Part shown: positions 11,087-27,301 of the stretch, piece after piece | How positions within the stretch are numbered: position 1 is the stretch's first letter | Layout of the letters: every line of letters starts with the position of its first letter | Origin: an uncultured Verrucomicrobiota bacterium | GTDB lineage: Bacteria > Verrucomicrobiota > Verrucomicrobiia > Limisphaerales > UBA8199 | NCBI GenBank assembly: GCA_964446585.1 | Contig: CAYUPI010000004.1 | Span: forward strand, 124,177 to 188,176 | DNA length: 64,000 nt | Direction: 5' to 3' | Program-made: the position numbers and the translations under genes | Notes under the pieces: generated by a model | What the model was told of the DNA's origin: nothing | What the model saw: the letters and a program-made list of their open reading frames with translations, nothing else | Database searches by the model: none

Positions 11087-12543
11087 TTCACTTGCCGCGC
11101 GTATTGTTCCTCCAACTCCCCCACCCTTATCGGCCCATCGAACCCGGACCCAATTGGTGGCCCGCCTTTCACACCGTATCGCGACGGCTGGATCGGGCCG
11201 GAAATTTTTTGCCCGACGAAAAAAGCGTGAATGCCGCGCGCGGCTTTTTTGCCCTCGGCGACGGCATTGACGACTTCGCGGCCGCCATTGGCGCAGTCGC
11301 CGCCCGTGAAGACATGGGGAAGGGAAGTCTGCCCCGAGTCAGCTCGGTGAACCACCACTCCCTGTTTGTCCAGCTCCAGGTCAGAAAAGAGCTTCTTCAA
11401 CAGGCCAACCTGCTTCTGCTCGCCGATGGCTTTAATGACCATGTCGAACGGCTCGACCCAGTCGGTGCCCGGCAGAACCTGCAGCTTTCCGTTTGTGCTG
11501 GCCGTTCGAGCGAGCTTGAGCCCGGTCACGTGGCCGGTGTCGTTCGAGAGAATTTCCACTGGAACTGCATGGAAGATGAATTCGCAACCATCCGCCTTGG
11601 CCATCTCTTGCTCGAATTCGTAAGCCGGCATTTCTTCCCGGGTCCGCCGATAGATGAGCACCGCCTTCTCCGCCCCCAGCCGCTTGGCCTGGGTAACGGC
11701 GTCAATCGCCGTGTTGCCGCCGCCGATTACCGCGACTCTGTTGCCAACTGGCACCTGGTGCAGCGGCTGCGCGTGAATCTGTTCGATGAAATAAAGGGCC
11801 TCGACTACCTCGGGCAAATCTTCGCCCGCGATATTCATCCGCGCGCCGCCGCCGAGTCCGAAGCCGATAAAGATCGCATCAAACTTCTTCTCGAGTTCCG
11901 CGATGGTTATGTCGCGGCCCACCTCGACGCCACAGCGAATTTCCACGCCCAAATCCTGGACCATCCGGACTTCAAGGAGGCTCGTCTCCGGCTTCATTTT
12001 GTAGTAAGCAATGCCGTAGGTGTTCAGCCCGCCAGCCTGAGGTTTCTTTTCGAAGACCACGGCCTGATGGCCGAGCTGCGCCAGCTCGGCGGCGCAGCCC
12101 AGGCCCGCCGGACCGCCACCCAGGATCGCCACGCGCTTGCCGGACTTCCGTGCGGGCGGGTTGAACAGCTGCACTCCGTTATCATAAACGTGGTCCGTCG
12201 CGTGCCTCTGCAGCCTGCCGATTTTGACCGGGTCGCCCTCGCGATCCAGCATCACGCAAGCCCCCTCGCATAGCACCTCCGTCGGGCATACGCGCGCGCA
12301 ACTGGCACCAAGAATGTTTGCGCTGAGAATCGTGCGCGCCGCTCCGGTCAAATTCCCCGTCGTGATTTTCTTAATGAAAGAAGGGATGTCGATGCCGGTC
12401 GGACAAGCATGAATGCAGGGAGCATCGAAGCAAAACAGGCAGCGGTTGGCTTCGATGATGGCTTCATGGGGAGCATAGCGCGGAGCAATCTCGGCCATGT
12501 TGGCCGCGGCAGCTTCCGCGCCTAACTGGGGATTGATCGGCAT
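11083..12543 (-). CDS. preT: Dihydropyrimidine dehydrogenase subunit PreT (GltD-like FAD/Fe-S oxidoreductase)
   Basis: RCLFCFDAPCIHACPTGIDIP, CARVCPTEVLCEGAC, GGGPAGL, VIGGGNTAIDA; upstream of preA in the same orientation; ATG at 12543 chosen. Confidence 0.9.
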   Translation of the reverse strand: MPINPQLGAEAAAANMAEIAPRYAPHEAIIEANRCLFCFDAPCIHACPTGIDIPSFIKKITTGNLTGAARTILSANILGASCARVCPTEVLCEGACVMLDREGDPVKIGRLQRHATDHVYDNGVQLFNPPARKSGKRVAILGGGPAGLGCAAELAQLGHQAVVFEKKPQAGGLNTYGIAYYKMKPETSLLEVRMVQDLGVEIRCGVEVGRDITIAELEKKFDAIFIGFGLGGGARMNIAGEDLPEVVEALYFIEQIHAQPLHQVPVGNRVAVIGGGNTAIDAVTQAKRLGAEKAVLIYRRTREEMPAYEFEQEMAKADGCEFIFHAVPVEILSNDTGHVTGLKLARTASTNGKLQVLPGTDWVEPFDMVIKAIGEQKQVGLLKKLFSDLELDKQGVVVHRADSGQTSLPHVFTGGDCANGGREVVNAVAEGKKAARGIHAFFVGQKISGPIQPSRYGVKGGPPIGSGFDGPIRVGELEEQYARQVK

Positions 12544-12632
12544 AAAATGGCTGACAAGCAGATCAGAATAGGGGAATTCTAAGTGAAATAAAAGAAGCAA
12601 TAATAGGATTTTAGGACAACTCAGGACCAGGA

Positions 12633-13877
12633 ATGACGACACCCCTAAATCCGAAACGGACAGTCGCTGAACTCAAGGAACTGCGCAGCCTCACTTCCGA
12701 TGAGAACGGAGCGCAGCGGGTCGCCTTTACGCCGACGTGGGTCAAAGCGCGCGATTGGCTGAGAGAGAAACTCAGGTCACTGCCCGTTGAGAGCCACATC
12801 GATGCCGCGGGCAACTCCTGGACGACGCTCGCCGGTGAATCCGAGCGGGCGCTACTGATCGGCGGGCATATCGATTCGGTGCCGAACGGCGGCTGGCTCG
12901 ATGGCTGCCTCAATCTACTCGCCGGGCTGGAGATCCTGAGGCGAGTCAACGCGGAGTACGGAGGGAAGCCGCCGGTCACCGTCCGGCTGGTCGATTGGGC
13001 GGACGAGGAAGGCGCGCGGTTCGGCAAGAGTTTATTTGGCTCCTCGGCCTGTTCCGGAAACCTGAACATGGACGAGGCCCGTGTTCTAACGGACAAGCAA
13101 GGCATCCGCTTGCCGGACGCGCTCAAGAGTGTCGGCGTGGACTTCGAGCGAGTGAAGGAGAGCGGCCGGGAGCTCAAGAATGCGGGTGCCTATATCGAGT
13201 TGCACATCGAGCAAGGGCCGGTGCTGCTGGATTTGGAGCTGCCGCTGGGCGCGGTGCTGGGCACGTTCGGCGTCGAGCGGCACGCCATCACCTTTCATGG
13301 CCAGGCGGCGCATTCAGGCAGCACGCCGATGAACCGTCGCAAGGACGCCTTCCTGGCCGCGGCGAAGATAAGCCAGGAGATTTACCGCATTGCCGAACGG
13401 AGCAAGGGAGGAGTTTGCACTATCGGCTCCTGCACGACCAAACCCGGCATTGTGACGAGCGTCGTCGAAGAGTGCCGCATCACGCTCGATCAGCGTCACC
13501 TGGACGCGGCGGCCCTGGCGCGGATGCTGCAGGAGGCCAAGGCTGCAAGCGAACGCTTCGCGAAGGAAGGCAACGTCGGAGTGTCGTGGGAGCGGTTGTG
13601 GCAAATCGAGCCGGTGTTGTTTAATCCGGATTTGATAGCTTTCTGTTCGGAGGCGATAACTGAAACGTGCGGCAAAACTCACCGGCTCCCTTCGGGCCCG
13701 CTGCATGATGCCGCCGAGGTGGCGCGCGCCGGCATCCCGACGGTGATGACGTTCGTCCAAAGTCTCCACGGGATCAGTCACAACAAGATTGAAGATACCA
13801 AAGAAGAGCACCTCGAGCTCTGCGTGGCCGCATTCGATAAACTAGCGGACAAGGCGATGAAGTGGGTGGAAGGTTGA
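12633..13877 (+). CDS. M20 Zn amidohydrolase, probable beta-ureidopropionase / N-carbamoyl-amino acid hydrolase
   Basis: GGHIDSVPNGGWLDG, DEEGARFG, ELHIEQGP, HSGSTPM, SGPLHDA; divergent from preTA. Confidence 0.85.
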   Translation: MTTPLNPKRTVAELKELRSLTSDENGAQRVAFTPTWVKARDWLREKLRSLPVESHIDAAGNSWTTLAGESERALLIGGHIDSVPNGGWLDGCLNLLAGLEILRRVNAEYGGKPPVTVRLVDWADEEGARFGKSLFGSSACSGNLNMDEARVLTDKQGIRLPDALKSVGVDFERVKESGRELKNAGAYIELHIEQGPVLLDLELPLGAVLGTFGVERHAITFHGQAAHSGSTPMNRRKDAFLAAAKISQEIYRIAERSKGGVCTIGSCTTKPGIVTSVVEECRITLDQRHLDAAALARMLQEAKAASERFAKEGNVGVSWERLWQIEPVLFNPDLIAFCSEAITETCGKTHRLPSGPLHDAAEVARAGIPTVMTFVQSLHGISHNKIEDTKEEHLELCVAAFDKLADKAMKWVEG

Positions 13878-14001
13878 AGCGTTAGAACGCTGAAACGTTG
13901 AATCGTCAAGCGTGGAATGGTGGAATGGTGGAAGAGTGGGAGCGTGGAAGCGTCAAAGCGTTGAAGAGTTAAAGAGCTGAAGCGTAGAAACGTGGAATCT
14001 A
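13875..14001 (+). repeat. Degenerate 8-nt tandem array, about 16 units
   Basis: TGAAGCGT TAGAACGC TGAAACGT TGAATCGT CAAGCGT GGAATGGT GGAATGGT GGAAGAGT GGGAGCGT GGAAGCGT CAAAGCGT TGAAGAGT TAAAGAGC TGAAGCGT AGAAACGT GGAATCTA. Confidence 0.9.
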
Positions 14002-14005
14002 AGTC

Positions 14006-14530
14006 GTGGAATTGAAGCGCGTCCATTCCCTCGATGAACTGAATTCCCTATCGCAAGAGGAGTTTGTGCGCGGCGTTGGTCCTGTCTTTGAGAGTTCGCC
14101 GTGGGTTGCGGAGGGAACCTGGCCGAGGAGACCGTTCAAAGATTTGGCCGAGCTGCATCTCGCGCTTTGCGAGACGGTCCGCGGCGCGGCTGAAGAAAAG
14201 CAGCTCGCTCTGATTCGTGCGCATCCGGATTTGGTCGGCCGCGCGGCCCTGGCTGGCACGCTGAGGCCCGAATCCACTCGTGAACAGGCCAGCGCCGGGT
14301 TGAACCGGCTCCAGCCTGGCGAAATCGCCGCGTTCCAGGAATTAAACCAGGCGTATCGAGCAAAGTTCAGGTTTCCGTTCGTGATCTGCGCCCGGCTCAA
14401 CAGGAAGGAAGCGATATTGAATGGCCTTCGAGCGCGCTTGCAGCATTCAAGCGTAGAGGAGATCAAGACGGCGCTTGCTGAGATTGAAAAAATCGCTTAT
14501 CTGCGGCTGCAAGACATCGTCCGAACCTGA
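14006..14530 (+). CDS. uraD: OHCU decarboxylase
   Basis: [51 protein letters not shown]. Confidence 0.92.
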
Positions 14531-14535
14531 CGGCT

Positions 14536-14892
14536 ATGCCCGCCAAACTGAGCACACACGTCCTGGATACGGCACATGGTTGCCCGGCGGCTGGCATGCA
14601 GATCGAGTTGTGGTCGCTCGCTGGCGGGACGCCGAGGCTGTTGAAAACAGCGCGCACGAACAGTAATGGCCGGACCGATCAAGCGCTGTTGGCCGCCGAT
14701 GAAATCAAAGCCGGGTCGTACGAACTCATATTCTTCGTGGGCGACTACTTTGCAAGCAAGAGTGCTTCAGTGCCGAGCACGCGTTTCCTGGATCGGGTCC
14801 CCGTCCGCTTCGGTATCGCCGATCCAACTGCTTCCTATCATGTGCCGCTGCTGGTGTCGCCCTGGGCCTACAGCACGTATCGCGGGAGTTGA
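14536..14892 (+). CDS. uraH: 5-hydroxyisourate hydrolase
   Basis: [38 protein letters not shown] (transthyretin-like signature). Confidence 0.95.
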
Positions 14893-14908
14893 GCACATTC
14901 GTCCACGG

Positions 14909-16390
14909 ATGAGCGCCGCAAAGCCAGCCTCGGAATGGGGAAAGATGGCCACTCGGGTTATGCGGCGCCTTGAAGAGCTTGGCCAAATCAGCGACGAACC
15001 GGGCCGGCTGACGCGCACCTTTTGCTCGCCTGCGATGCGCCGCGCGAATGACCATGTCGGTTCCTGGATGCGCCAAGCAGGCATGACGATCCGTCAGGAT
15101 GCCATCGGCAATCTGGTCGGCCATTACCCCGGTCAAAGTGCGAAGTGCGAAGTGCGAAGTGCGAAATGCGAAGTCCATCCTCCTCCGTCAGAAGCACTGC
15201 GGAGGACAATAAGTCCATCCTTCTCTGTCAAGAGCGCTGCGGGGGACAAGAAGTCCAAAGTTCTGCTGCTTGGCTCGCATCTCGATACGGTCCGGGATGC
15301 GGGCAAATTCGACGGCGCTCTGGGCGTGCTGGTAGCCATTGCCTGTGTCCAGAAGCTCCACGAGCGTGGCAGCCGGCTGCCATTTGACATTGACGTCCTC
15401 GGTTTTGGAGATGAGGAAGGCATCCGGTATTCCACAGCCTGCCTGGGTAGCAGGGTCCTCGCGGGAACTTTCGACCGACGCGATTTGAAACGCCGAGACG
15501 CCAACGGCGTCACCATGAGGGAGGCCATCCGCGAATTCGGCGGACGCCCGCAAGCATTGAGCGGCGCGCGGTTCGATCCCGAACGGTTGCTCGGGTACGC
15601 CGAGATCCACATCGAACAGGGACCTGTGCTGGAGCAGCAGAATCTCGCGGTCGGCGTCGTGTCCGCCATAGGCGGTCAAACCCGCGCTCGGATTTCGTTC
15701 ACTGGGCAGGCCGGACATGCCGGGACCACTCCGATGAACCTGCGCCGGGATGCGTTGTGCGGTGCCGCCGAGTTTATTTCGGTAGTCGAGGCGCTCGCTC
15801 GGAAACAGCGCGGGCTGGTGGCTACTGTCGGCGAGCTCAAAGTGCTCCGCGGCGCTTCCAATGTGATTCCCGGCCAGGTCCAGCTCAGCCTGGACGTGCG
15901 GCATGCGGAAGACGCCAGGCGGCGGGCCGCGTGCGCCGAATTGAAAAAGCGTGGCCGGGCCATCGCTTCTGAAAGAAAATTGCGATTTGAATGGAAACCG
16001 GTCAGTGAGTCACCTGCCATTCGGTGTGATCGATGGCTCTCTCAACTAATGAAGGAAGCCGTGCAGCGGCAGCAGGGCTCGGCCGTGAGTTTGCCCAGCG
16101 GGGCAGGGCATGACGCGGCGGCCATTGCGGCTATCGCCCCCGTAACTATGCTCTTCGTCCGGTGCAAGAACGGTCTCAGCCATCATCCGGCGGAATACGC
16201 CTCGAAAAGGGACGTGGGCATCGCTATGGCCGTCCTGGTTGATTTTTTGCGGGGGCTGGCAAAGAGATTTGGAACGTCCTGCGAGTCACCGACAGTGCGT
16301 AGCCGTGGACGTCAGTCGGCGCTGAAAAGCACGCGGGAAGAAGGTCCGCCGACTCACGTCGGCGGCTACAATTCAGCCCGCGATTTGTGA
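14909..16390 (+). CDS. allC: Allantoate amidohydrolase with repeat-derived internal insertion and C-terminal extension
   Basis: DAIGNLVG, GSHLDTVRDAGKFDG, DEEGIRY, EIHIEQGP, HAGTTPM, SGAGHDA, SHHPAE; lies between uraH and allB. Confidence 0.88.
   Translation: MSAAKPASEWGKMATRVMRRLEELGQISDEPGRLTRTFCSPAMRRANDHVGSWMRQAGMTIRQDAIGNLVGHYPGQSAKCEVRSAKCEVHPPPSEALRRTISPSFSVKSAAGDKKSKVLLLGSHLDTVRDAGKFDGALGVLVAIACVQKLHERGSRLPFDIDVLGFGDEEGIRYSTACLGSRVLAGTFDRRDLKRRDANGVTMREAIREFGGRPQALSGARFDPERLLGYAEIHIEQGPVLEQQNLAVGVVSAIGGQTRARISFTGQAGHAGTTPMNLRRDALCGAAEFISVVEALARKQRGLVATVGELKVLRGASNVIPGQVQLSLDVRHAEDARRRAACAELKKRGRAIASERKLRFEWKPVSESPAIRCDRWLSQLMKEAVQRQQGSAVSLPSGAGHDAAAIAAIAPVTMLFVRCKNGLSHHPAEYASKRDVGIAMAVLVDFLRGLAKRFGTSCESPTVRSRGRQSALKSTREEGPPTHVGGYNSARDL
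15136..15256 (+). repeat. AAGTGCG heptamer array followed by an imperfect 40-bp tandem duplication inside allC
   Basis: AAGTGCG x4 plus AAATGCG at 15136-15170; units 15171-15210 and 15211-15250 match at 33/40 positions by manual alignment. Confidence 0.9.
16299..16369. repeat. GTAG-type REP inverted pair inside the allC 3' end
   Basis: gtagccgtggacgtcagtcggcg (16299-16321) vs reverse complement of 16347-16369, gtagccgccgacgtgagtcggcg: 20/23 identity. Confidence 0.85.
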
Positions 16391-17763
16391 GCGATTCCAA
16401 TTTTGATCTCCTCATCCGGCGTGCCTCTGTCGTTACCGAGAGCGCCATCAACCGCATGGACATCGGCATCGCTTGGGGCCGCATCGCGGCGCTAGGGCCC
16501 GAGCTCAGCGGCTCTGCCCGCGAGACCATCGACGCCTCCGGGTTGCACGCCTTTCCCGGGTTGATTGATTCCCACGTCCATTTCAACGAGCCGGGCCGCG
16601 CGCATTGGGAAGGGTTCGACTCCGGCTCCCGCGCTCTCGCCGCCGGCGGCGGCACGCTCTTTTTCGACATGCCGCTCAATTCGACGCCGCCCACGATCGA
16701 CGCCGCCAGTTTCGATCGGAAACTCGCCGCCGCGCAGGCTAATTCGCTGGTGGATTTTGCGTTTTGGGGTGGACTCGTGCCGGGCAATGTCCAGCACATG
16801 GAAGCGCTCAGCGAGCGCGGTGTGGTCGGCTTTAAGGCGTTTATGGCCGACAGCGGCATCGAGGATTTCCCCCGGGCGGATGAAGTAACGTTGCGCGCTG
16901 GGATGAGGCAGGCCGCCCGATTGGGAAAAATTGTCGCCGTCCACGCGGAAAGCGAAGAGATGATTCGCTCGAAGACCGACCAGCTTCTGTCAGCCGGGTC
17001 CTCGTCCGCTCGCGATTACCTCGACTCTCGGCCCATCCCCGCCGAGCTCGATGCCATAGGCCGAGCGCTGGACATGGCTGGGGAGAGCGGCTGCGCATTG
17101 CACATCGTGCATGTCAGTTGCGGCGCGGGTGTTGCGCTTGTCGCTTCCGCTCGAAAGCAAGGAGTGAACGTTACCTGCGAAACTTGCCCACACTACCTCA
17201 CGCTGACTGAAGAGGACGTGTTTCGGTTGGGTGCAGTTGCGAAAAGCGCCCCGCCACTGCGTGCCAAACCAGCCCAGGATTCTTTGTGGGAGTACCTCAG
17301 GTCGGACCAGATCACCACGGTGGGCTCCGATCACTCGCCGTCGCCTCCCGAGCTGAAGACCGGCACGAATTTTTTCAGAGTCTGGGGCGGCATTTCCGGC
17401 ATTCAGCACACGCTGCCGCTTCTTCTTACCGAAGGCCACGTCCAGCGCAACGTCGTTCTGCCAATTATCGCGCGGCTCACCTCTTTCAATGTCGCTGAGC
17501 GATTTGCGCTGCCGGCTGCGAAAGGTCGAATTGGCCTGCAGGCCGAGGCGGATTTCGCGCTAGTGGATCTGGGGCTGTCTTCCGAAGTCCGGGCCGGCGA
17601 TTTGCTGTGCCGACACCCGCAAACGCCTTACATTGGACGCACGTTGACAGGCAAAGTTGTCCGGACCATTCTCCGCGGGCAAACGGTTTGTCTGGACGGG
17701 AAAATTGTCTCGCAACCGATGGGCCGTTTGGTCAGACGGGAAGGCTCGACGAGCCCAAAATGA
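16387..17763 (+). CDS. allB: Allantoinase
   Basis: PGLIDSHVHFNEPGR.HWEGF, GGGTLFFDMPLNS.PPT, VHAE, HIVHVS, CETCPHYL, PPLR, GSDHSP, WGGISG. Confidence 0.93.
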   Translation: MSDSNFDLLIRRASVVTESAINRMDIGIAWGRIAALGPELSGSARETIDASGLHAFPGLIDSHVHFNEPGRAHWEGFDSGSRALAAGGGTLFFDMPLNSTPPTIDAASFDRKLAAAQANSLVDFAFWGGLVPGNVQHMEALSERGVVGFKAFMADSGIEDFPRADEVTLRAGMRQAARLGKIVAVHAESEEMIRSKTDQLLSAGSSSARDYLDSRPIPAELDAIGRALDMAGESGCALHIVHVSCGAGVALVASARKQGVNVTCETCPHYLTLTEEDVFRLGAVAKSAPPLRAKPAQDSLWEYLRSDQITTVGSDHSPSPPELKTGTNFFRVWGGISGIQHTLPLLLTEGHVQRNVVLPIIARLTSFNVAERFALPAAKGRIGLQAEADFALVDLGLSSEVRAGDLLCRHPQTPYIGRTLTGKVVRTILRGQTVCLDGKIVSQPMGRLVRREGSTSPK

Positions 17764-17842
17764 CGGCGAGCCGTGGAGCTATTGATTTTTGCGGCGCGCG
17801 ACGTGTTGACCTTAGAATGCAGCAGATTTGAACCGCTTAGTT

Positions 17843-18586
17843 ATGACTAACCTCTTTGGCAGCACCCGTAGCGCAATTAAAGAGCGCTATGGCTTGATTG
17901 CTCCCAGCGGCTTTGTGCCCAGCGTTCTGCCCGGCTGGCAAAAGGCTGTGTGCCACGTAGTCATCTCTCCTGCCCTGGGCGCGCGGTTCTGCCAAATTCA
18001 CGTTACGCTGGAACAGGACGGCCAGTGTCAGGGCAACACCGGCGCGAATGAGTATTTCATCTATGTCCTCGAAGGCGCGGCCAGCATTCTGGTCGAAGAA
18101 CGCCGGCGCCGGCTCGAGACTGGCAACTACGTTTACCTGCCGGCCGCCACCGACGTGCAATTGAAAAGCAACGGGTCCGCCACTCGCATTTTGATTTTTC
18201 AAAAGCCTTATCAACCGTTGCCCGGCGTGGCCAAACCGACCGCCCTGGTCGGCCAGGAGCGCGACATCAAAGGCCAGCCCTTCCTCGGCAATGAAGACGC
18301 CCGGTTGCAAGTGCTGTTGCCCGAGGAGCCCGCCTTCGACATGGCCGTCAATATTTTTACTTATCAGCCAGGAGCGACACTGCCGTTCGTGGAAACCCAC
18401 ATCATGGAGCATGGCCTTCTGATGCTGCGAGGGCAGGGCATCTACCGGTTGAATGCCGATTGGCATCCGGTGCAAGCCGGCGATGTGATCTGGATGGCGC
18501 CGTATTGCCCGCAATGGTTCGTGGCGATGGGCAAAACACCGGCCAGTTACATCTACTACAAAGACGTGAACCGGGATCCGATTTGA
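17843..18586 (+). CDS. allE: (S)-ureidoglycine aminohydrolase (bicupin)
   Basis: FDMAVNIFTYQPGATLPFVETHIMEHGLLML.GQGIYRL, GDVIWMAPYCPQWF, YIYYKDVNRDP. Confidence 0.92.
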   Translation: MTNLFGSTRSAIKERYGLIAPSGFVPSVLPGWQKAVCHVVISPALGARFCQIHVTLEQDGQCQGNTGANEYFIYVLEGAASILVEERRRRLETGNYVYLPAATDVQLKSNGSATRILIFQKPYQPLPGVAKPTALVGQERDIKGQPFLGNEDARLQVLLPEEPAFDMAVNIFTYQPGATLPFVETHIMEHGLLMLRGQGIYRLNADWHPVQAGDVIWMAPYCPQWFVAMGKTPASYIYYKDVNRDPI

Positions 18587-18593
18587 ATATCTG

Positions 18594-18635
18594 AAGCCCG
18601 AGGTCCGAAGTGCGAAATGCGAAGTCCGAAATCCG
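18594..18635 (+). repeat. Heptamer array, AAGTGCG family
   Basis: AAGCCCG AGGTCCG AAGTGCG AAATGCG AAGTCCG AAATCCG just after the allE stop. Confidence 0.85.
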
Positions 18636-18734
18636 GAGACGGATGCTTTAGTGACGGTCTGCCGTTCGCGCGCCCGGGCTTTTTCGATCGTTGCTTTCTC
18701 CCCGCGCACCGCTACCATCCGCGCTTCGAGTGTT

Positions 18735-19382
18735 ATGACGCCAGCGCGTGCCCCGAAAAACGAGAAGAAACGGCTCAAAGTGCTGTGGGAATACTCCGTG
18801 CTCGACACCGTGCCGGAGGAAATCTTCGACGACTTGACTGAACTGGCGGCGCGCATCTGCGAGGCGCCGATCGCTATGATTACGCTCGTGGACGAAAAAC
18901 GTCAGTGGTTCAAATCCAAGGTCGGCGTCAGCGTCAGCGAGACGTCGCGGGACATTTCCTTTTGTTCCCATGCCATTACGCAGCCCGGGTTGTTTATCGT
19001 GCCGGATGCAACCAAGGACGAGCGATTTGCGGATAACCCCCTCGTGACTTCCGATCCGAAGGTGCGCTTTTACGCGGGCGCGCCGCTCATTACGGCCGAC
19101 GGTTATGCCCTGGGAACACTCTGTGTCATTGACAAAGTCCCGCGCGAATTGCACCCCGACCAGAAACAGGCCTTATGCATCCTCGCCCGCCACGTCGTCA
19201 TCCAACTGGAACTCCGCAGACGTTCCGCAGAGCTGGCCAGTGCCCGGAACGAACTCGGGAGAATGAAGACCGCCCTGGCTCAGGTGCGAAAGGAGCTGGC
19301 CAAAGTCCGCCGCGGGCTGCGTCGGTCCCGAGCGACCCACAACTCGCGTCCCGCCCGCCCCAAGGCCAAAGGCCGCAGGTAA
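18735..19382 (+). CDS. Stand-alone GAF-domain protein with basic coiled-coil tail
   Basis: RL..L.EYSVLDT.PEE.FDDLT.LAARIC..PIAMITLVDE.RQWFKS, SFCSHAI, VRFYAGAPL, LGTLCVID; no output domain follows. Confidence 0.85.
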   Translation: MTPARAPKNEKKRLKVLWEYSVLDTVPEEIFDDLTELAARICEAPIAMITLVDEKRQWFKSKVGVSVSETSRDISFCSHAITQPGLFIVPDATKDERFADNPLVTSDPKVRFYAGAPLITADGYALGTLCVIDKVPRELHPDQKQALCILARHVVIQLELRRRSAELASARNELGRMKTALAQVRKELAKVRRGLRRSRATHNSRPARPKAKGRR

Positions 19383-19428
19383 TTTCTCTGGCGCGTTCGC
19401 CGCGCCGACTGACGGCCCCGTTCCTTTC

Positions 19429-20676
19429 ATGGCGCTTTCGCTGACCATTGACAGCCCTCGCCTCGAGAAACAACTCGGAGCCCTTGCCGCCATTTCCGAA
19501 GCGCCGCCTCCGGTGGTTACGCGCGTGCTGTTTTCCGATGCCGATCGCCGCGGGCGGTCGTTCGTGAAGGATCTTTGCCGTGAAGCCAGCCTACAAGTGA
19601 GCGAAGACGCGGTTGGTAACCTCTTCGCCCGCTGGTCAGGAAAAGAGTCGCAACTGACGCCGATTGCCACCGGATCCCACATTGACGCCGTCCCAAACGC
19701 GGGGCGTTTCGATGGCGTGGTCGGCGTGCTTGGCGCATTGGAAGCCGTGCGCTCGCTAAAGAGCGCGGGTTTCGAACCGCGCCGGAGCATTGAAATCATC
19801 ATGTTCACGGCGGAAGAGCCGACCCGCTTCGGCATGGGTTGCCTGGGCAGCCGCCTGCTGTCGGGAGCGCTGAGCCCGGAGAAGGCCGCCGCCTTGCGCG
19901 ATCCCGAAGGCAAGACCCTCGACCTGTGGCGCACTGAGGCCGGGTATGGGAAACGGCCATTGACCTCTGTCCGGTTGGCGCGGAACTGCTACGCCGGTTT
20001 CATCGAGCTGCACATCGAGCAAGGACCGCTGCTTGAACGAGAGCGCGTGGCAATCGGAGTTGTCAGGATCATCGCAGCCCCTAGTACCCTGCGCGTGCGA
20101 CTTGTCGGAACAGGGGGCCACGCCGGTGCCGTGCTGATGCCGGACAGGCATGACGCCTTGCTCGCGGGTGCGGAGATCGCGCTCGCCGTCGAGCAAGCCG
20201 CATTGTGCAGCGGCAGTCCAGATACAGTCGCCACTACGGGAGCTTTCCGCATCGAGCCGGGTGCCGTCAACAGCGTGCCGTCGGGCGCCTGGTTGGAAAT
20301 AGATCTGCGCGACGTGCAACTAAGCACGAGGGACGCAGCCCTCCGTCAGATTGAGACGGCTGTCCGCGACATCTGCCAACGCCGAGGCGTCGAATTTCAA
20401 CTCGAACGCCTGAACGCGGACGCGCCGGCCACCTGTGATCCAGAACTCATCAAGACCGTCCTCTCGGTGTGCGATGAGCTCGACTTGTCCGCCCGGGAAA
20501 TGATCAGTCGCGCTTACCACGATACGCTGTTCATGGCCAGGTTATGTCCTACAACCATGATCTTCATCCCGTGCCGTGGGGGCGTCAGCCATAGGCCGGA
20601 CGAATATTCCTCGCCGGACCAGATCCGTGACGGAGTACTGGTCCTCGCGCAAAGTTTAGCGCGACTAGGCGTCTGA
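19429..20676 (+). CDS. M20 amidohydrolase, probable ureidoglycolate amidohydrolase (plant UAH-like)
   Basis: ATGSHIDAVP, EEPTRFG..CLGSRLL, SRAYHDTLFMAR, MIFIPC.GG.SH.P.EYSSP resemble plant UAH motifs as recalled; located in the ureide cluster. Confidence 0.75.
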   Translation: MALSLTIDSPRLEKQLGALAAISEAPPPVVTRVLFSDADRRGRSFVKDLCREASLQVSEDAVGNLFARWSGKESQLTPIATGSHIDAVPNAGRFDGVVGVLGALEAVRSLKSAGFEPRRSIEIIMFTAEEPTRFGMGCLGSRLLSGALSPEKAAALRDPEGKTLDLWRTEAGYGKRPLTSVRLARNCYAGFIELHIEQGPLLERERVAIGVVRIIAAPSTLRVRLVGTGGHAGAVLMPDRHDALLAGAEIALAVEQAALCSGSPDTVATTGAFRIEPGAVNSVPSGAWLEIDLRDVQLSTRDAALRQIETAVRDICQRRGVEFQLERLNADAPATCDPELIKTVLSVCDELDLSAREMISRAYHDTLFMARLCPTTMIFIPCRGGVSHRPDEYSSPDQIRDGVLVLAQSLARLGV

Positions 20677-20694
20677 ACCAGGCCCGCCTTTTTA

Positions 20695-20723
20695 TTGCAG
20701 GCGCGGGATTTTTTGGCTATGCT
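20695..20723 (+). promoter_or_regulatory. Putative sigma70 promoter for xdh
   Basis: TTGCAG (20695-20700), 17 nt, TATGCT (20718-20723), upstream of ATG 20738. Confidence 0.45.
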
Positions 20724-20737
20724 TGGCTGGAAGCACT

Positions 20738-23700
20738 ATGGACGGGGCCCTTGAGTTTATTCTGAACAGCCGTCGGGTTCGGCTCGCGGATTGTTCGCCC
20801 AATGCCACTCTGCTGGATTATCTCAGGGGCTGCGGTTTTACCGGTTCCAAAGAAGGCTGCGCCGAGGGCGATTGCGGAGCGTGTTCCGTGGCAATCGTGG
20901 ACCGGGATTCCCGGGGACGCGCCTGCTACCGCGCCATCAACAGTTGCCTGGTGCCGATTTCACTCCTGGCGGGGCGCGAGATTATCTCGGTCGAAGGAGT
21001 AGCCTTTCGCAACAAAACCCAAAACCCAAAACCCAAAATCCAATCGCGCCACGCGGTGTCTCCCACCGAGGCAATCGACGAGGTCCAGCTCCACCCGGTC
21101 CAGGAAACAATGGTTCGCTGCCACGGCTCGCAATGCGGCTATTGCACGCCCGGGTTCATCCTGTCGCTGTTCGAGGGCTATTACCGCGGCGACATTTCCA
21201 AATCGGATCAACTGGACGATCAGCTTTGCGGCAATCTTTGCCGGTGCACCGGCTACCGACCGATTCGTGAAGCGGCTCTCGAGGCCTTCCCGGCACGACA
21301 TCGCAAAAATGGCCGAGACCCATTCGCGGAGCGGCTGGAACGGCCGGTCCCGTCTCTGGATGAAGTCGAGTACGCGCTCGACGGTGAAATGTTTTTCCGG
21401 CCATCGTCGCTCCCGCAGCTCCTGCAGTTGATGGAGCGATTTCCTGACAGCAGGCTGATCGCCGGTGCGACGGAACTTGGACTGGACATTACGAAGCGAT
21501 TCAAGAAGTTCCCAACCCTCATCTCAGTTGAGGCGGTGCCCGACTTGAAAGAAATCCACTCGACGGATTCTGAATGGCGCATCGGCGCTGCTGCTACGCT
21601 CACCGAAATCGAGGAACAGATGGCGGAGGAATTTCCAGCTCTCGCCGACATGTTGCGCGTCTTTGGCTCGCGCCAAATCCGCAATCGCGCCACCATGGGC
21701 GGCAACCTTGTCACGGCTTCGCCCATCGGCGACAGCGCGCCGGTGTTGCTGGCGCTGGACGCCAAAGTCGTTCTGGTCTCTGCTCAACCTGCACTTGCGA
21801 CGCCCCCCTCGCAGCTTCCCTCGCTGATCGAGCGCATACTGCAGCTCGACGACTTTTTTGTGACTTATCGCAAAACCGCGCTGCGGCCGGGTGAAATCCT
21901 CAAAACAATTTTGGTGCCGCGTTCCGACAGCGAATCCGGCCTTCGTCGATTCTGCCGGTGGTATAAAGTTTCGAAGCGACGGGAAATGGACATCAGTACC
22001 GCGGCGGCCTGTTTTTGCGTCGATATCGACCACCAGCGCATCGTCAGGGACGCCCGACTCGCTTATGGTGGCGTGGCTCCGATGCCTGTGCGCGCCCACA
22101 AGACTGAGGCAGCTCTGCTCGGGATGCCGTGGAGCAAAGAGACACTCTCTCGAGTTGTACCCATCTTGCAGAGTGAGTTCACCCCGATTTCCGACGTGCG
22201 CGGCTCGGCCGAGTACCGACGAGGGCTGGGTGCGAGCCTTTTTGAGAAGTTCTATCAAGAGACCTCTGAGGAGCCGAACGATCGCCGGGACCAAGGTCTG
22301 CCGCTGCTCGTTAGGTCTCCGGCCGAAGGACGGAAGCGCGCGTTGCCGCATGAGAGCGCGCACAAGCATGTCACGGGCGAGGCGATTTACACCGATGACC
22401 AAGCCTGCGGCACACGCATGCTCGACGTCTGGCCTGTCTGTTCGCCGCACGCGCGCGCGCGGGTCCTCCGGCGGGATGCGACGGTCGCATGCAAGATGCC
22501 CGGCATAAAAGCGGTGCTCCTGGCTGAAGACGTACCGGGCCTGAACGATGCGGGCACAAAACTCGATGAAGCGTTGCTGGCCACTGATAATGTGTTTTAT
22601 CACGGTCAGATTGTCGCGCTGGTCGTTGGTGAATCTCAGGAAGTTTGCCGTGCCACGGCTGATAAAGTTCTTGTCGATTACGAGCCCCTTGAGCCGATTC
22701 TGACTCTGACGGAGGCGATCGCCCAAGGGAGCTTTCACAATGAACCGAATTTTATCCGCCGCGGCGACATTGAGGCGGCGCTTGCCGCTGCGCCCTTGAT
22801 TCTGCGCGGCGAATTCGAGTTAGGCGGCCAGGAACACTTTTACCTCGAAACTCATGCGGCGTGGGCCGAACCGGGCGAGGATGGCACGATGTTCGTGACC
22901 TCATCGACCCAGCATCCTTCCGAAGTCCAGACGGTGGTGGCGCACGCCCTCCGTCAGCCCGTAAACAATATCATTGTGCAATGTCCTCGTATGGGCGGTG
23001 GCTTCGGCGGCAAGGAAACCCAGGCGGCAATGCCCGCGGCCCTGGCTGCGCTAGCCGCGCATCATACTGGCCGAGCCGTGCGCGTTCGATTCAATCGCGA
23101 TCAGGACATGATCCTCACCGGCCATCGGCATCCCTTCCGGGCGGAATTCGCGGTCGGCTTCGACACCCAGGGCCGGCTGCTGGCGGCGCGAGTGCACCTG
23201 ACCTCAAACGGCGGTTGGGCATTGGATCTATCACAAGCCGTCACTGACCGCGCGCTCTTTCATCTGGATAATGCCTATTACATTCCCGCGGTCGAGTTTC
23301 GCGGCCAGGTGGCGAAGACCAATCTTTCGTCGAACACCGCTTTTCGGGGGTTCGGTGGCCCGCAGGGCATGCTCGTCATCGAGGAAATCATCGATCGCAT
23401 CGCACGTCGGCTCGGCCTTCCACCGGAAACGGTCCGCGAACGAAATCTCTATCGTGGCAAGGGCGAGACGAACACAACTCATTACGGACTGGAGATCGCG
23501 GACAACCGCATTCAAACCATCTGGCGCGAGTTGAAGATGTCCAGCGGCCTGACACGGCGCCGCGCCGAGATTGCAGCCTGGAACCGGAAGCATCCTCATC
23601 GGAAGCGCGGTCTGGCGATGACTCCCGTCAAGTTCGGTATCAGCTTCACGGTGACGCATCTCAATCAGGCAGGCGCGTTCGTTTTGATTTACCAGGATGG

Positions 23701-24682
23701 CACAGTGCAGGTGAATCATGGAGCCACCGAAATGGGGCAGGGCGTACATACGAACATCACGGCGATCGCCGCTCGTGAATTGGGCGTTGGACTCGATCAG
23801 GTCCGCGTGATGCCGACCAGCACGGACAAAGTCCCGAACACTTCTGCCACCGCGGCCTCTTGCGGCACGGATCTCAATGGCGCGGCGGTCAGAAACGCCT
23901 GTGAGATCCTTCGCGGCCGACTGGCTCCAATCGCCGCCGACGTGCTCAAACTGAAAATCGGACGCCGGCCCGTGCCCGAGCAATTGACTTTTGCTGAAGG
24001 CCACGTTTACTGGCGCCGGCGCCCGCGCATTTCGGTCAGCTTTGCTGACGTCGCCCGCGCGGCGGTCCAGCGACGCATCAGCCTCTCCGCCGCGGGATAC
24101 TACGCCACGCCAGGAATCCGATACGACCGCGCCGCCGGCCGCGGCCACCCCTTCTATTATTTTGCCTGTGGCGCTGCGGTTTCCGAAGTCGAAGTGGACG
24201 GCTTCACCGGGATGCACCGCGTCTTGCGGGTGGACATCCTCCACGATGTCGGCGACTCGATCAACGAGGGTGTCAATCGCGGCCAAATCGAAGGCGGCTT
24301 CGTCCAGGGGATGGGCTGGTTGACGATGGAAGAACTGAAATGGGACCACCAGGGCCATCTACTTACCCATTCTCCCGACACCTACAAGATTCCCGCGGTC
24401 GGCGACATGCCGCAGGTCTTCAATGTCTCGCTTCTCAAGAACGCCGCGCAAAAGGGCACGATCTACGGGAGCAAAGCCGTCGGGGAGCCGCCGTTGATGC
24501 TGGCAATCTCTGTCCGCGAGGCTATTCGCGATGCCGTCGCAGCGTTTGGGCCTCCAAAAACCCAGGTGCCCTTGCCTTCACCCGCCACCTGTGAGGCGAT
24601 TTACCTCACGATTCAGGCATTTCAGAGCCGAAAGAAGCCGTCGATTCTTGCGCCGGCCCCGCAGCTCCTTGCCGCAGGTTGA
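20738..24682 (+). CDS. xdhAB: Xanthine dehydrogenase, single-chain XdhA-XdhB fusion
   Basis: KEGCAEGDCGAC and SQCGYCTPG/GNLCRCTGY (2Fe-2S); IAGATELGL and IRNRATMGGN (FAD); GQEHFYLE, MGGGFGGKE, AFRGFGGPQG, TAASCG, SKAVGEPPL (Moco), all in one frame. Confidence 0.93.
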   Translation: MDGALEFILNSRRVRLADCSPNATLLDYLRGCGFTGSKEGCAEGDCGACSVAIVDRDSRGRACYRAINSCLVPISLLAGREIISVEGVAFRNKTQNPKPKIQSRHAVSPTEAIDEVQLHPVQETMVRCHGSQCGYCTPGFILSLFEGYYRGDISKSDQLDDQLCGNLCRCTGYRPIREAALEAFPARHRKNGRDPFAERLERPVPSLDEVEYALDGEMFFRPSSLPQLLQLMERFPDSRLIAGATELGLDITKRFKKFPTLISVEAVPDLKEIHSTDSEWRIGAAATLTEIEEQMAEEFPALADMLRVFGSRQIRNRATMGGNLVTASPIGDSAPVLLALDAKVVLVSAQPALATPPSQLPSLIERILQLDDFFVTYRKTALRPGEILKTILVPRSDSESGLRRFCRWYKVSKRREMDISTAAACFCVDIDHQRIVRDARLAYGGVAPMPVRAHKTEAALLGMPWSKETLSRVVPILQSEFTPISDVRGSAEYRRGLGASLFEKFYQETSEEPNDRRDQGLPLLVRSPAEGRKRALPHESAHKHVTGEAIYTDDQACGTRMLDVWPVCSPHARARVLRRDATVACKMPGIKAVLLAEDVPGLNDAGTKLDEALLATDNVFYHGQIVALVVGESQEVCRATADKVLVDYEPLEPILTLTEAIAQGSFHNEPNFIRRGDIEAALAAAPLILRGEFELGGQEHFYLETHAAWAEPGEDGTMFVTSSTQHPSEVQTVVAHALRQPVNNIIVQCPRMGGGFGGKETQAAMPAALAALAAHHTGRAVRVRFNRDQDMILTGHRHPFRAEFAVGFDTQGRLLAARVHLTSNGGWALDLSQAVTDRALFHLDNAYYIPAVEFRGQVAKTNLSSNTAFRGFGGPQGMLVIEEIIDRIARRLGLPPETVRERNLYRGKGETNTTHYGLEIADNRIQTIWRELKMSSGLTRRRAEIAAWNRKHPHRKRGLAMTPVKFGISFTVTHLNQAGAFVLIYQDGTVQVNHGATEMGQGVHTNITAIAARELGVGLDQVRVMPTSTDKVPNTSATAASCGTDLNGAAVRNACEILRGRLAPIAADVLKLKIGRRPVPEQLTFAEGHVYWRRRPRISVSFADVARAAVQRRISLSAAGYYATPGIRYDRAAGRGHPFYYFACGAAVSEVEVDGFTGMHRVLRVDILHDVGDSINEGVNRGQIEGGFVQGMGWLTMEELKWDHQGHLLTHSPDTYKIPAVGDMPQVFNVSLLKNAAQKGTIYGSKAVGEPPLMLAISVREAIRDAVAAFGPPKTQVPLPSPATCEAIYLTIQAFQSRKKPSILAPAPQLLAAG
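21014..21041 (+). repeat. AAAACCC x3 plus AAAATCC heptamer array inside xdh
   Basis: Direct reading; translated within NKTQNPKPKIQ between the two 2Fe-2S subdomains. Confidence 0.85.
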
Positions 24683-25625
24683 ATTCTTTTTCGTAAACAA
24701 GCTCCGCCCGTTTATCGATGAACTGGGCCATGATGCTTACCGCGATCTCCGGCACACTCCGCGACCGAATCTTGATTCCAACTGGACATACCACGCGACG
24801 CAGCTCGTCCTCGGTCGCAAGTTTTTCCTCGCGGAAATGCTCGAAGATGGTGCGTGCCTTGCGCGAGCTGCCAATCATGCCGAGGAAAACGAAGGGCTTG
24901 TGGATCCACTCTCTCAGCAGCAGTGCATCATGACGGTGACCGCGGGTGACTATCAGGCCGAGGCTCGGGGTGTCCGGCAGAGGCAGTGGCAACAGCTTTT
25001 CCCACACGTCCGCTCGCAGTGAAACTCCGTGCGGAAAATACTTATGGTTCGCCAGCGCGGGCCGGTCGTCAAAGACTGTGACCGCGAAATCCAGTTGCAG
25101 GGCCAGCGGCGCAACCGCCTGGGCGAGGTGGCCCGCGCCGCCGATCCAGAGCGCGCACGGCGGGGTGACGGTTTCCTGATAAAGCCACGCCTCGCGAGGC
25201 GGGTTGTCTGGCAGAGCCATGATGAAATAGTCCCTGGTCACGCCCCAGGAGAGCTTCCTCGGCCGTTTGACCAGTTCCGTCCAAAAACTTTCGCCGATGT
25301 TTTGTGCGTTAGGGACAATCACTCCGAAAACCTTGCCGCCGCAAATCAGGCCGTCGTCCCAGCCGAAATCGTGATCGAGCAACAGGTCGAAAGACTCCGC
25401 CTTTCCTTTTCGCATTGATTGGAGGGCGCGCTGCTGAATTTCAGCTTCCAGACAACCGCCGCCTACCGTTCCCGTGATGCGGCCGTCCGCATGAAACAAG
25501 GCCTTGGCGCCGACCTTTTGCGGGCTGGAACCCTTTACGCCCGAGATGATTCCCAAGGCGACCGGTTCGCCCCGCCGAGCGGCGTCCGCCAACTCCTGGA
25601 ATACCGCATTGTTCATTGTCTCCAC
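24606..25625 (-). CDS. xdhC: XdhC/CoxI family Moco-insertion accessory protein
   Basis: GSSPQKVGAK, GTVGGGCLEA, ICGG, IGGAGHLA, VFDDRP, VTRGHRHD, FLGMIGSSRK, CPVG. Confidence 0.9.
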   Translation of the reverse strand: METMNNAVFQELADAARRGEPVALGIISGVKGSSPQKVGAKALFHADGRITGTVGGGCLEAEIQQRALQSMRKGKAESFDLLLDHDFGWDDGLICGGKVFGVIVPNAQNIGESFWTELVKRPRKLSWGVTRDYFIMALPDNPPREAWLYQETVTPPCALWIGGAGHLAQAVAPLALQLDFAVTVFDDRPALANHKYFPHGVSLRADVWEKLLPLPLPDTPSLGLIVTRGHRHDALLLREWIHKPFVFLGMIGSSRKARTIFEHFREEKLATEDELRRVVCPVGIKIRSRSVPEIAVSIMAQFIDKRAELVYEKEFNLRQGAAGPAQESTASFGSEMPES

Positions 25626-25704
25626 TAAACCTATCGCTCGCGGGCAAATTAGTCGAGTTTCCAGGGAGTGGTTCCCTCAGTGGCCAGTGCCATGTCGAGA
25701 AGGG

Positions 25705-25802
25705 GCGCGGACACCCCGTCCGCGAATTTCGGTTCGTGCTGGCGGCGGGAATGCGGTCGAGCAACCTGCCGACAGAAACGCGGACGGAGGCGTCCGCGCT
25801 CC
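25705..25802. repeat. Second REP family, inverted pair (GCGCGGAC...GTCCGCG)
   Basis: Hairpin gcgcggacaccccgtccgcg at 25705-25724 and inverted hairpin cgcggacggaggcgtccgcgctcc at 25779-25802. Confidence 0.7.
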
Positions 25803-25845
25803 GGGCCGCGCATTTCTTGGATCCGCCTTGACGGCTAACCGCTAA

Positions 25846-25868
25846 ACATTTCAACGCTGTTGAAATGT
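25846..25868. promoter_or_regulatory. Perfect palindrome, candidate operator
   Basis: ACATTTCAAC-gct-GTTGAAATGT in the divergent xdhC/thrC intergenic region. Confidence 0.5.
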
Positions 25869-25910
25869 GTTGGGATCGTGCCATGATTCCTCCCTGATGG
25901 CTGATGATTG

Positions 25911-25933
25911 CGCCGACTGACGTCGGCGGCTAC
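25911..25933 (-). repeat. Solo GTAG-type REP
   Basis: Reverse complement gtagccgccgacgtcagtcggcg, 22/23 identical to the 16347-16369 arm. Confidence 0.85.
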
Positions 25934-25954
25934 TGCATTAGTCAATATCGAACG

Positions 25955-27301
25955 ATGTCATACCGAGCCTGGTTCAAGTGCATCAACCTGGACTGCGGAG
26001 CTACGTATCCGCTGAACCGGATCGTGTACGAGTGCGGGCGCTGCCAATCCCTGCTCGAGGTCCAGCACGACCTGGCGGCGCTGGCGCGTCGCGACGCCAA
26101 GGGTTGGATGAAACTCTTTGAAGATCGCTACAAGAGCAACCTCTGGCCCTACGGCTCGGGAGTGTGGGGCAAAAAGGAATGGATTCTGCCCCAGATTGAC
26201 AACGACAACATCGTCTCGCTGTACGAAGGCGGAACGAACCTCTTCTGGGCCGAACGCTTCGGCAAAGTTATTGGCGTCGAGGACCTCTGGATTAAGCTCT
26301 GCGGCAACACGCACAGCGGTTCTTTCAAAGACCTGGGCATGACCGTTCTCGTTTCCCAGGTCAAGCAGATGATTTCCGAGGGCGCGCCGATCAAAGCGGT
26401 CGCTTGCGCATCCACCGGCGACACCTCGGCCGCCCTGGCCACTTACTGCGCCGCAGCCGGCGTTCAATCCGTCGTCCTGCTTCCGCGCGGTAAGATCTCG
26501 ACAGCTCAACTGGTTCAACCCATTTCAAGCGGCGCGCTCGTGCTCTATCTCGACACGGACTTTGATGGATGTATGCAATTAGTGCGCGAGATCACCAAGG
26601 ACGATTCGATTTACCTGGCCAACTCTATGAACTCGTTGCGGGTCGAAGGCCAGAAGACCGTCGGCATCGAGATCGTGCAACAGTTCGATTGGGAAGCGCC
26701 AGATGTCATCGTTATTCCCGGCGGCAACCTGGGCAATGTCTCTGCTTTGGGGGCGGGGCTAATGATGATGAAGCAGCTTGAACTCATCGCGAAGCTGCCG
26801 CGTATTGTCGTCGCCCAGGCAGAGCGCGCCAACCCGCTTTATCGCTCGTATCTTCGGAATTACTCCGCTTTCGAGCCGGTGCCGGCCCGGAAGACGCTCG
26901 CCAGCGCGATCCAGATCGGTAATCCGGTCAGTTTCCAGAAGGCTGTCCGCACGCTCAAGCAATTCAACGGTATCGTCGAGCAAGCCACGGAAGAGGAACT
27001 GGCGGACGCCGCAGCGCTCGGGGATCGCACCGGAATGTTTAATTGCCCGCACACGGGCGTGGCCCTCGCTGTGCTGATGAAATTAATCAAGACCGGCAAG
27101 ATTGATTCGGCTGAGCGCGTGGTAGTCATCTCGACCGCGCACGGATTGAAATTCGTCGAGATGAAGGTCAAGTATCATCAACGCGAACTGGAATTCGCAT
27201 CCCGACACGCCAATCAGCCGATTGAACTACCGGCGCGGCTGGACGCGGTCAAAGACGCCCTGCAGAACGCTCTGCAGGCCAAGAGGGACGTCGAAGTTTA
27301 A
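25955..27301 (+). CDS. thrC: Threonine synthase
   Basis: [17 protein letters not shown] (PLP Lys), [58 protein letters not shown]. Confidence 0.93.

Follow-up and report, generated by a model that had tools for sequence, protein, structure and literature searches.

In the window, a stretch of 64,000 nucleotides of DNA from an uncultured Verrucomicrobiota bacterium, three M20 amidohydrolase genes (M20-1, M20-2 and M20-3) were found within 8.04 kb (12633-20676), and the locus raises the question of whether the third of them encodes a (S)-ureidoglycolate amidohydrolase (UAH) completing a urea-free ureide route. The UAH gene was reportedly identified by Werner et al. in 2010 and has been characterised in Arabidopsis. 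UAH is treated as a plant enzyme in PMC10120013 and PMC3793230, the former, a 2023 paper, describing the activity as 'found in plants'. Percudani et al. gave EC 3.5.3.19 (now 3.5.1.116) to UAH-like genes and showed AllA to be a Ni-dependent urea lyase (PMC3793230), whereas Yue et al. listed plant allantoate amidohydrolase (AAH) and UAH among genes acquired from bacteria (PMC3493653), so that bacterial homologues had been noticed by 2012.

The analysis strongly favours M20-3 as a functional bacterial orthologue of plant UAH (EC 3.5.1.116), which would perform the final ureide step of the gene row. In its support stand the homology, the conserved residues, the place in the tree, the order of the genes and the failure to detect alternative enzymes, and we infer the substrate, the products, the metal and the co-transcription. 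Since no report of measured activity was found for bacterial members of the clade in the literature searched (subscription journals lay outside its coverage), the assignment is based on an identity of about 55% to a single plant enzyme that has been characterised.

The gene row and its three M20 proteins

The + strand was found to contain M20-1, an OHCU decarboxylase, a HIU hydrolase, the AAH (M20-2), an allantoinase, a (S)-ureidoglycine aminohydrolase (UGlyAH), a GAF protein, the UAH orthologue (M20-3) and a single-chain xanthine dehydrogenase (XDH), in this order, on the same strand throughout and with gaps of about 130 bp or less (Table 1). The genes divergent from M20-1 were preT, a small inserted ORF, preA and a methylmalonate-semialdehyde dehydrogenase gene. 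A promoter and terminator scan of positions 12300-26000 gave nothing above the shuffled expectation.

Table 1. Features of the purine and ureide gene row, in positions of the window
Feature	Position	Strand	Evidence
M20-1 (P0002), carbamoylase-family amidohydrolase	12633..13877	+	TIGR01879, 297 bits; under every equivalog cut-off
OHCU decarboxylase	14006..14530	+	PF09349, 165 bits
5-hydroxyisourate (HIU) hydrolase	14536..14892	+	PF00576, 121 bits
Allantoate amidohydrolase (AAH), M20-2 (P0003, residues 82-574)	14909..16390	+	NF006775, 537.8 bits vs cut-off 479
Allantoinase	16387..17763	+	TIGR03178, 533 bits vs cut-off 358
(S)-ureidoglycine aminohydrolase (UGlyAH), maker of the UAH substrate	17828..18586	+	TIGR03214, 314 bits vs cut-off 200
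Stand-alone GAF-domain protein, between UGlyAH and UAH	18651..19382	+	PF01590, 63 bits
UAH orthologue M20-3 (P0001), predicted (S)-ureidoglycolate amidohydrolase, EC 3.5.1.116	19429..20676	+	415 aa; PDB match, clade, SRAYHD
Single-chain xanthine dehydrogenase, XdhA and XdhB fused, 1319 aa	20723..24682	+	TIGR02963, 480 vs 467; TIGR02965, 977 vs 850; Pfam domains
XdhC-type molybdenum cofactor insertion chaperone, after XDH on the opposite strand	24606..25625	-	PF13478, PF02625

The ORF of M20-3 was found to be stop-free and to encode an M20 amidohydrolase of hydantoinase/carbamoylase-type architecture (PF01546, 96.7 bits; TIGR01879, 353.6 bits, cut-off 204), with the motifs IATGSHIDAV, AEEPTRFG and SRAYHDTLFMAR in the translation. 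A sequence-only reading had described the three paralogues by the motifs GGHIDSV, GSHLDTV and TGSHIDAV and had ascribed EEPTRFG and SRAYHD.LFMAR to the third; each of these is present in the translations. In a search of all PDB sequences, the top matches of M20-3 were the Arabidopsis UAH chains 4PXE (437.6 bits, E 4e-130) and 4PXB (434.8 bits), and the alignment with AtUAH was found to run end to end. The runner-up chain, a carbamoylase-family amidase, scored 238.7 bits, about 200 bits under Arabidopsis UAH, followed by E. coli allantoate amidohydrolase (174.6 bits) and yeast beta-alanine synthase (166 bits). Apart from the generic family model TIGR01879, M20-3 was found to lie under every listed NCBIfam equivalog and subfamily cut-off, including that of the ErtE model (379.7 bits, cut-off 520). 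NCBIfam contains no UAH-specific model and the equivalog and subfamily matches were below cut-off, so NCBIfam could neither confirm nor name M20-3.

All three M20 proteins were found to pass TIGR01879 (M20-3 with 354, M20-1 with 297 and M20-2 with 366 bits), and a whole-genome tblastn found them to be the only members of the subfamily in the genome. Their mutual identity of 29-31% indicates old paralogues and not recent duplicates. M20-2 was found to carry the metal motif LLLGSHLDTV and the features of AAH, namely a passed curated model, a glycine at the position of Tyr423 of AtUAH and a QXR motif (GQTR). Its ORF is listed as 14666-16390, but roughly 80 codons at the 5' end lie over the HIU hydrolase gene, which places the real start later, likely at 14909. 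Just ahead of its GSHLDTV motif, an in-frame insert of about 38 aa (window 15136-15257) was found to consist of 5.6 copies of the heptamer AAGTGCG and 2.2 copies of a 40-nt unit that contains a hairpin, the sole other match in the genome being a 22-nt heptamer run in the spacer between the UGlyAH and GAF genes (window 18606-18627).

M20-1 was found to carry the metal motif LLIGGHIDSV and to form a long, unplaced branch in a tree of 60 rows. Its divergent orientation to preT-preA makes it a candidate beta-ureidopropionase, and no dihydropyrimidinase was found near it. The head-to-head arrangement of M20-1 with preT-preA and the methylmalonate-semialdehyde dehydrogenase gene is repeated in locus L052 and partly in L016 and L017.

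Specificity residues, phylogeny and competing assignments

The residues H84, D95, E129, E130, H195 and H388 of M20-3 (the putative metal ligands and catalytic Glu) were found to be invariant in the bacterial, plant, charophyte and red-algal members. Between the chains 4PXE and 4PXB a single aligned residue differs, E being changed to A at chain position 137, the counterpart of E129 in M20-3. From this match, chain and full-length numbering are offset by 46, by which Y363 of M20-3, the tyrosine of SRAYHD, corresponds to Tyr423 of AtUAH. According to a 2026 review (PMC13751858, citing Shin et al. 2014), Tyr423 limits ligand positioning in UAH and is replaced by glycine in AAH, and the QXR motif of AAH holds the second ureido group of allantoate. 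The ascription of SRAYHD to plant UAH in the sequence-only reading is thus borne out by the review, the tyrosine being the specificity residue.

M20-3 was found to contain SRAYHD and no QXR, with AAPSTLR at the place where AAH has GQxR, and in an alignment of 142 sequences this combination was common to M20-3 and all members of its clade. In the same alignment, E. coli AllC contained SGAGHD and GQRR, M20-2 contained SGAGHD and GQTR, and M20-1 contained SGPLHD with neither the Tyr nor QXR. SRAYHD, which was not a seed motif in the orthologue search, was found in 79 of 80 bacterial orthologues (the best 80 of at least 597), and the syntenic AAH was found to contain SGAGHD in 45 of 45 loci. The nearest non-UAH groups (P0141, P0143, P0155 and P0159) keep the Tyr and have Gly for Arg (SGAYHD); they are unnamed in every source and could represent a further undescribed specificity within the family.

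A homologue search over 1.84 billion cluster representatives gave matches in two bands, one above about 45% identity and a mass at or below 40%. By cluster look-up, the upper band was found to contain the ureidoglycolate hydrolases of Salix and Populus, proteins of Chara, Spirogloea and Pyropia, and IMG proteins named 'ureidoglycolate amidohydrolase'. In the 60-row maximum-likelihood tree, M20-3 shared a clade of 19 rows (SH-aLRT 99) with all of these plant, algal and IMG-named proteins, and E. coli AllC, M20-1 and M20-2 fell outside of it. The phylogeny proposed as a check on the sequence-only reading thus placed M20-3 with plant and algal UAH and not with N-carbamoyl-amino-acid hydrolases.

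It is improbable that M20-3 is a second allantoate/ureidoglycine amidohydrolase or a broad ureide amidohydrolase, with ureidoglycolate decaying spontaneously or by an unknown lyase. Slow decay of ureidoglycolate to glyoxylate and urea has been reported (PMC3793230), the UAH family is about 30% identical to AAH, and the top NCBIfam names for M20-3 are 'allantoate amidohydrolase' subfamilies, but the protein lies under the cut-off of all those models. The Gly and QXR are absent from M20-3 and present in M20-2, the real AAH of the cluster, whereas the Tyr, which is reported to exclude the second ureido group, is kept in the orthologues (79 of the best 80 of at least 597).

The assignment of M20-3 as an N-carbamoyl-L-amino-acid or N-carbamoyl-beta-alanine hydrolase of a hydantoin or pyrimidine pathway is held to be very unlikely. 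Many homologues of 70-79% identity are named N-carbamoyl-L-amino-acid hydrolase in IMG, but M20-3 lies outside all carbamoylase-like representatives in the 60-row tree. Model scores of about 380 bits (ErtE) and 354 bits (the generic carbamoylase model) point towards a carbamoylase, against which stand the unreached ErtE cut-off and the scores of solved carbamoylases, at most 239 bits compared with 437 for UAH. The preT-preA genes and the methylmalonate-semialdehyde dehydrogenase gene lie 7-12 kb upstream of M20-3; however, preT-preA is adjoined by M20-1 and not by M20-3, whose conserved neighbour is UGlyAH and not a hydantoinase.

The UAH assignment of M20-3 leaves the origin of the gene to be considered. 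In a second tree with 34 named bacterial orthologues, the UAH clade was supported at 98 against outgroups, M20-3 was nested in a 17-row Verrucomicrobiota clade (SH-aLRT 98), and the bacterial sequences were found apart from the eukaryotic ones (support 85). Both trees were quick searches without bootstraps and left the deep branching within the UAH clade unresolved. Nesting within the Verrucomicrobiota clade makes the gene look native to the phylum and not recently taken from a plant, and the tree of named orthologues led us to reject a recent transfer from plants. Recent acquisition from a plant or alga, in which 'plant-type' would be literal, is suggested by the identity of about 55% to plant UAH and the adjoining eukaryote-like single-chain XDH, but is extremely improbable given this clade, the separation of bacterial from eukaryotic sequences, the GC content, which was found to be even across the whole cluster, and the presence of the gene at 67-69% identity in 4 of 24 sampled genera of the same family. 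The plant-type route of the sequence-only reading is supported: AAH, UGlyAH and the predicted UAH stand in one row, and the genome gave no match to AllA, AllD, urease or, with a silent control, allantoicase. A plant origin is contradicted by the Verrucomicrobiota clade and by relatives in several phyla. 'Plant-type' is a historical and misleading label, with no plant origin implied.

The predicted urea-free route and its distribution in bacteria

The genome was found to be of 6.4 Mb in 150 contigs with a completeness of 96.84%. In searches whose controls worked, it showed no match for ureidoglycolate lyase (AllA), Ldh_2 (AllD), urease alpha or uricase, and no urea carboxylase was found above cut-off. 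No match to allantoicase was found either, although its control was silent, which makes this weak evidence of absence. As the genome is a draft of 150 contigs, these absences are not proof; the genome content nevertheless fits a urea-free route. The search for glyoxylate carboligase gave sub-threshold matches to thiamine enzymes only, and malate synthase was found. Far from the cluster, a PuuD-like protein of 272 aa was found (PF06181 Urate_ox_N, 273 bits; contig C36:29483-30310, L084:1528-2346, minus strand). It carries no evident cytochrome c tail and may catalyse the step from urate to 5-hydroxyisourate that is absent from the window.

In the proposed pathway, xanthine would be converted to urate by the single-chain XDH and urate to 5-hydroxyisourate by the PuuD-like protein encoded elsewhere, followed by the predicted action of HIU hydrolase, OHCU decarboxylase, allantoinase, AAH, UGlyAH and UAH in turn. 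The prediction for M20-3 is a dimer of the M20 hydrolase type whose centre binds two metal ions, probably Mn2+. Hydrolysis of (S)-ureidoglycolate at the carbamoyl amide would yield hydroxyglycine, decaying to glyoxylate and NH3, and carbamate, from which CO2 and NH3 would follow. The four nitrogens of the ring would all be released as ammonia, which would spare the cell any need for urease, and glyoxylate would enter metabolism via malate synthase.

When one genome per species was scanned for two motifs of the clade, at least 599 stretches emerged, of which at least 597 were confirmed, and motif-matching UAH relatives were thereby found in at least 597 species genomes. The best 80 of the at least 597 belong to Verrucomicrobiota, Acidobacteriota, Chloroflexota, Deinococcota, Planctomycetota and others. 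In these best 80 of at least 597 loci, many of them on short contigs, UGlyAH lay no more than 10 kb from the UAH orthologue in 63, nearly always immediately upstream and on the same strand, followed by allantoinase in 49, AAH in 46, HIU hydrolase in 44 and XDH in 37. The GAF protein, possibly a ligand sensor, was found in 3 of the same best 80 of at least 597 loci, all of them close relatives, which marks it as a lineage-specific addition to the operon. A homologue of the single-chain XDH (52-70% identity) adjoins UAH in many Verrucomicrobiota and Bryobacterales loci.

The distribution of UAH was found to be patchy: besides the sampled genera of the same family, the gene was present in 1 of the order's 16 other families, and a phylum-wide sample of 150 genomes contained one further orthologue. 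Judged by sequence, the ammonia-only ureide route recurs among bacteria as an operon of patchy distribution. UAH of the Verrucomicrobiota type (58-67% identity) was also found in metagenome-assembled genomes labelled Akkermansia, Bifidobacteriaceae and Saccharimonadales (loci L005, L006, L008 and L053), labels which are probably binning or labelling errors and not real hosts.

AllA was not found in five other UAH-bearing genomes, two of which contain urease, so UAH is not generally tied to the lack of urease; the predicted UAH thus appears to replace the lyase AllA without being bound to the absence of urease. At a rather low probability, the module of AAH, UGlyAH, UAH and single-chain XDH in soil and freshwater Verrucomicrobiota, Acidobacteriota, Chloroflexota and Deinococcota would represent the bacterial lineage that donated the ureide pathway of Archaeplastida, and would also hold the first bacterial UAH enzymes, as the activity is still ascribed to plants in recent papers.

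The UAH family is already annotated in many bacteria by IMG and NCBI. About half of the close homologues are named 'ureidoglycolate amidohydrolase' in IMG and the rest 'N-carbamoyl-L-amino-acid hydrolase', whereas the NCBI names are 'M20 family metallo-hydrolase' or, once, 'ureidoglycolate amidohydrolase'. With its predicted function, M20-3 supplies the final step by which this Verrucomicrobium recovers purine nitrogen and would explain the use of urate and allantoin nitrogen by a genome with no detected urease. Many bacterial copies of UAH are labelled as carbamoylase or generic M20 hydrolase in databases; a curated UAH model keyed on SRAYHD would mend such annotations and would make it easier to predict whether urea or ammonia is released in the soil nitrogen cycle.

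Comparison with known systems

The ureidoglycolate lyases, AllA of E. coli and DAL3 of yeast (EC 4.3.2.3), share with UAH the substrate and the glyoxylate product but are of unrelated fold, Ni-dependent and urea-releasing (PMC3793230). The absence of AllA matches here and in the five other UAH-bearing genomes fits a non-orthologous replacement.

The Geobacillus L-N-carbamoylase (3N5F) and the beta-alanine synthases (1R3N, 8C46) belong to the same superfamily as M20-3 and have a similar length and domain layout, whereas they score at most 238 bits (437 for UAH), do not contain the Tyr/Arg signature of SRAYHD and stand in another gene context. E. coli AllC (1Z2L, 4PXD) and M20-2 share with M20-3 the M20 carbamoylase-type family and the two-metal chemistry, AAH acting one step earlier. 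They differ by an identity of only about 30%, by Gly in place of Tyr together with QXR, and by a position outside the UAH clade.

The UAH of Arabidopsis thaliana (At5g43600; 4PXB, 4PXC and 4PXE) shares with M20-3 the metal and catalytic residues, the tyrosine of SRAYHD, the clade and the place in the pathway after UGlyAH. M20-3 differs in having no N-terminal targeting extension (415 aa compared with about 470-530 aa in the plant and algal representatives) and in being encoded in a bacterial operon, and its activity and metal preference are predicted only. On the strength of its sequence, M20-3 is best filed as a further member of the known UAH family.
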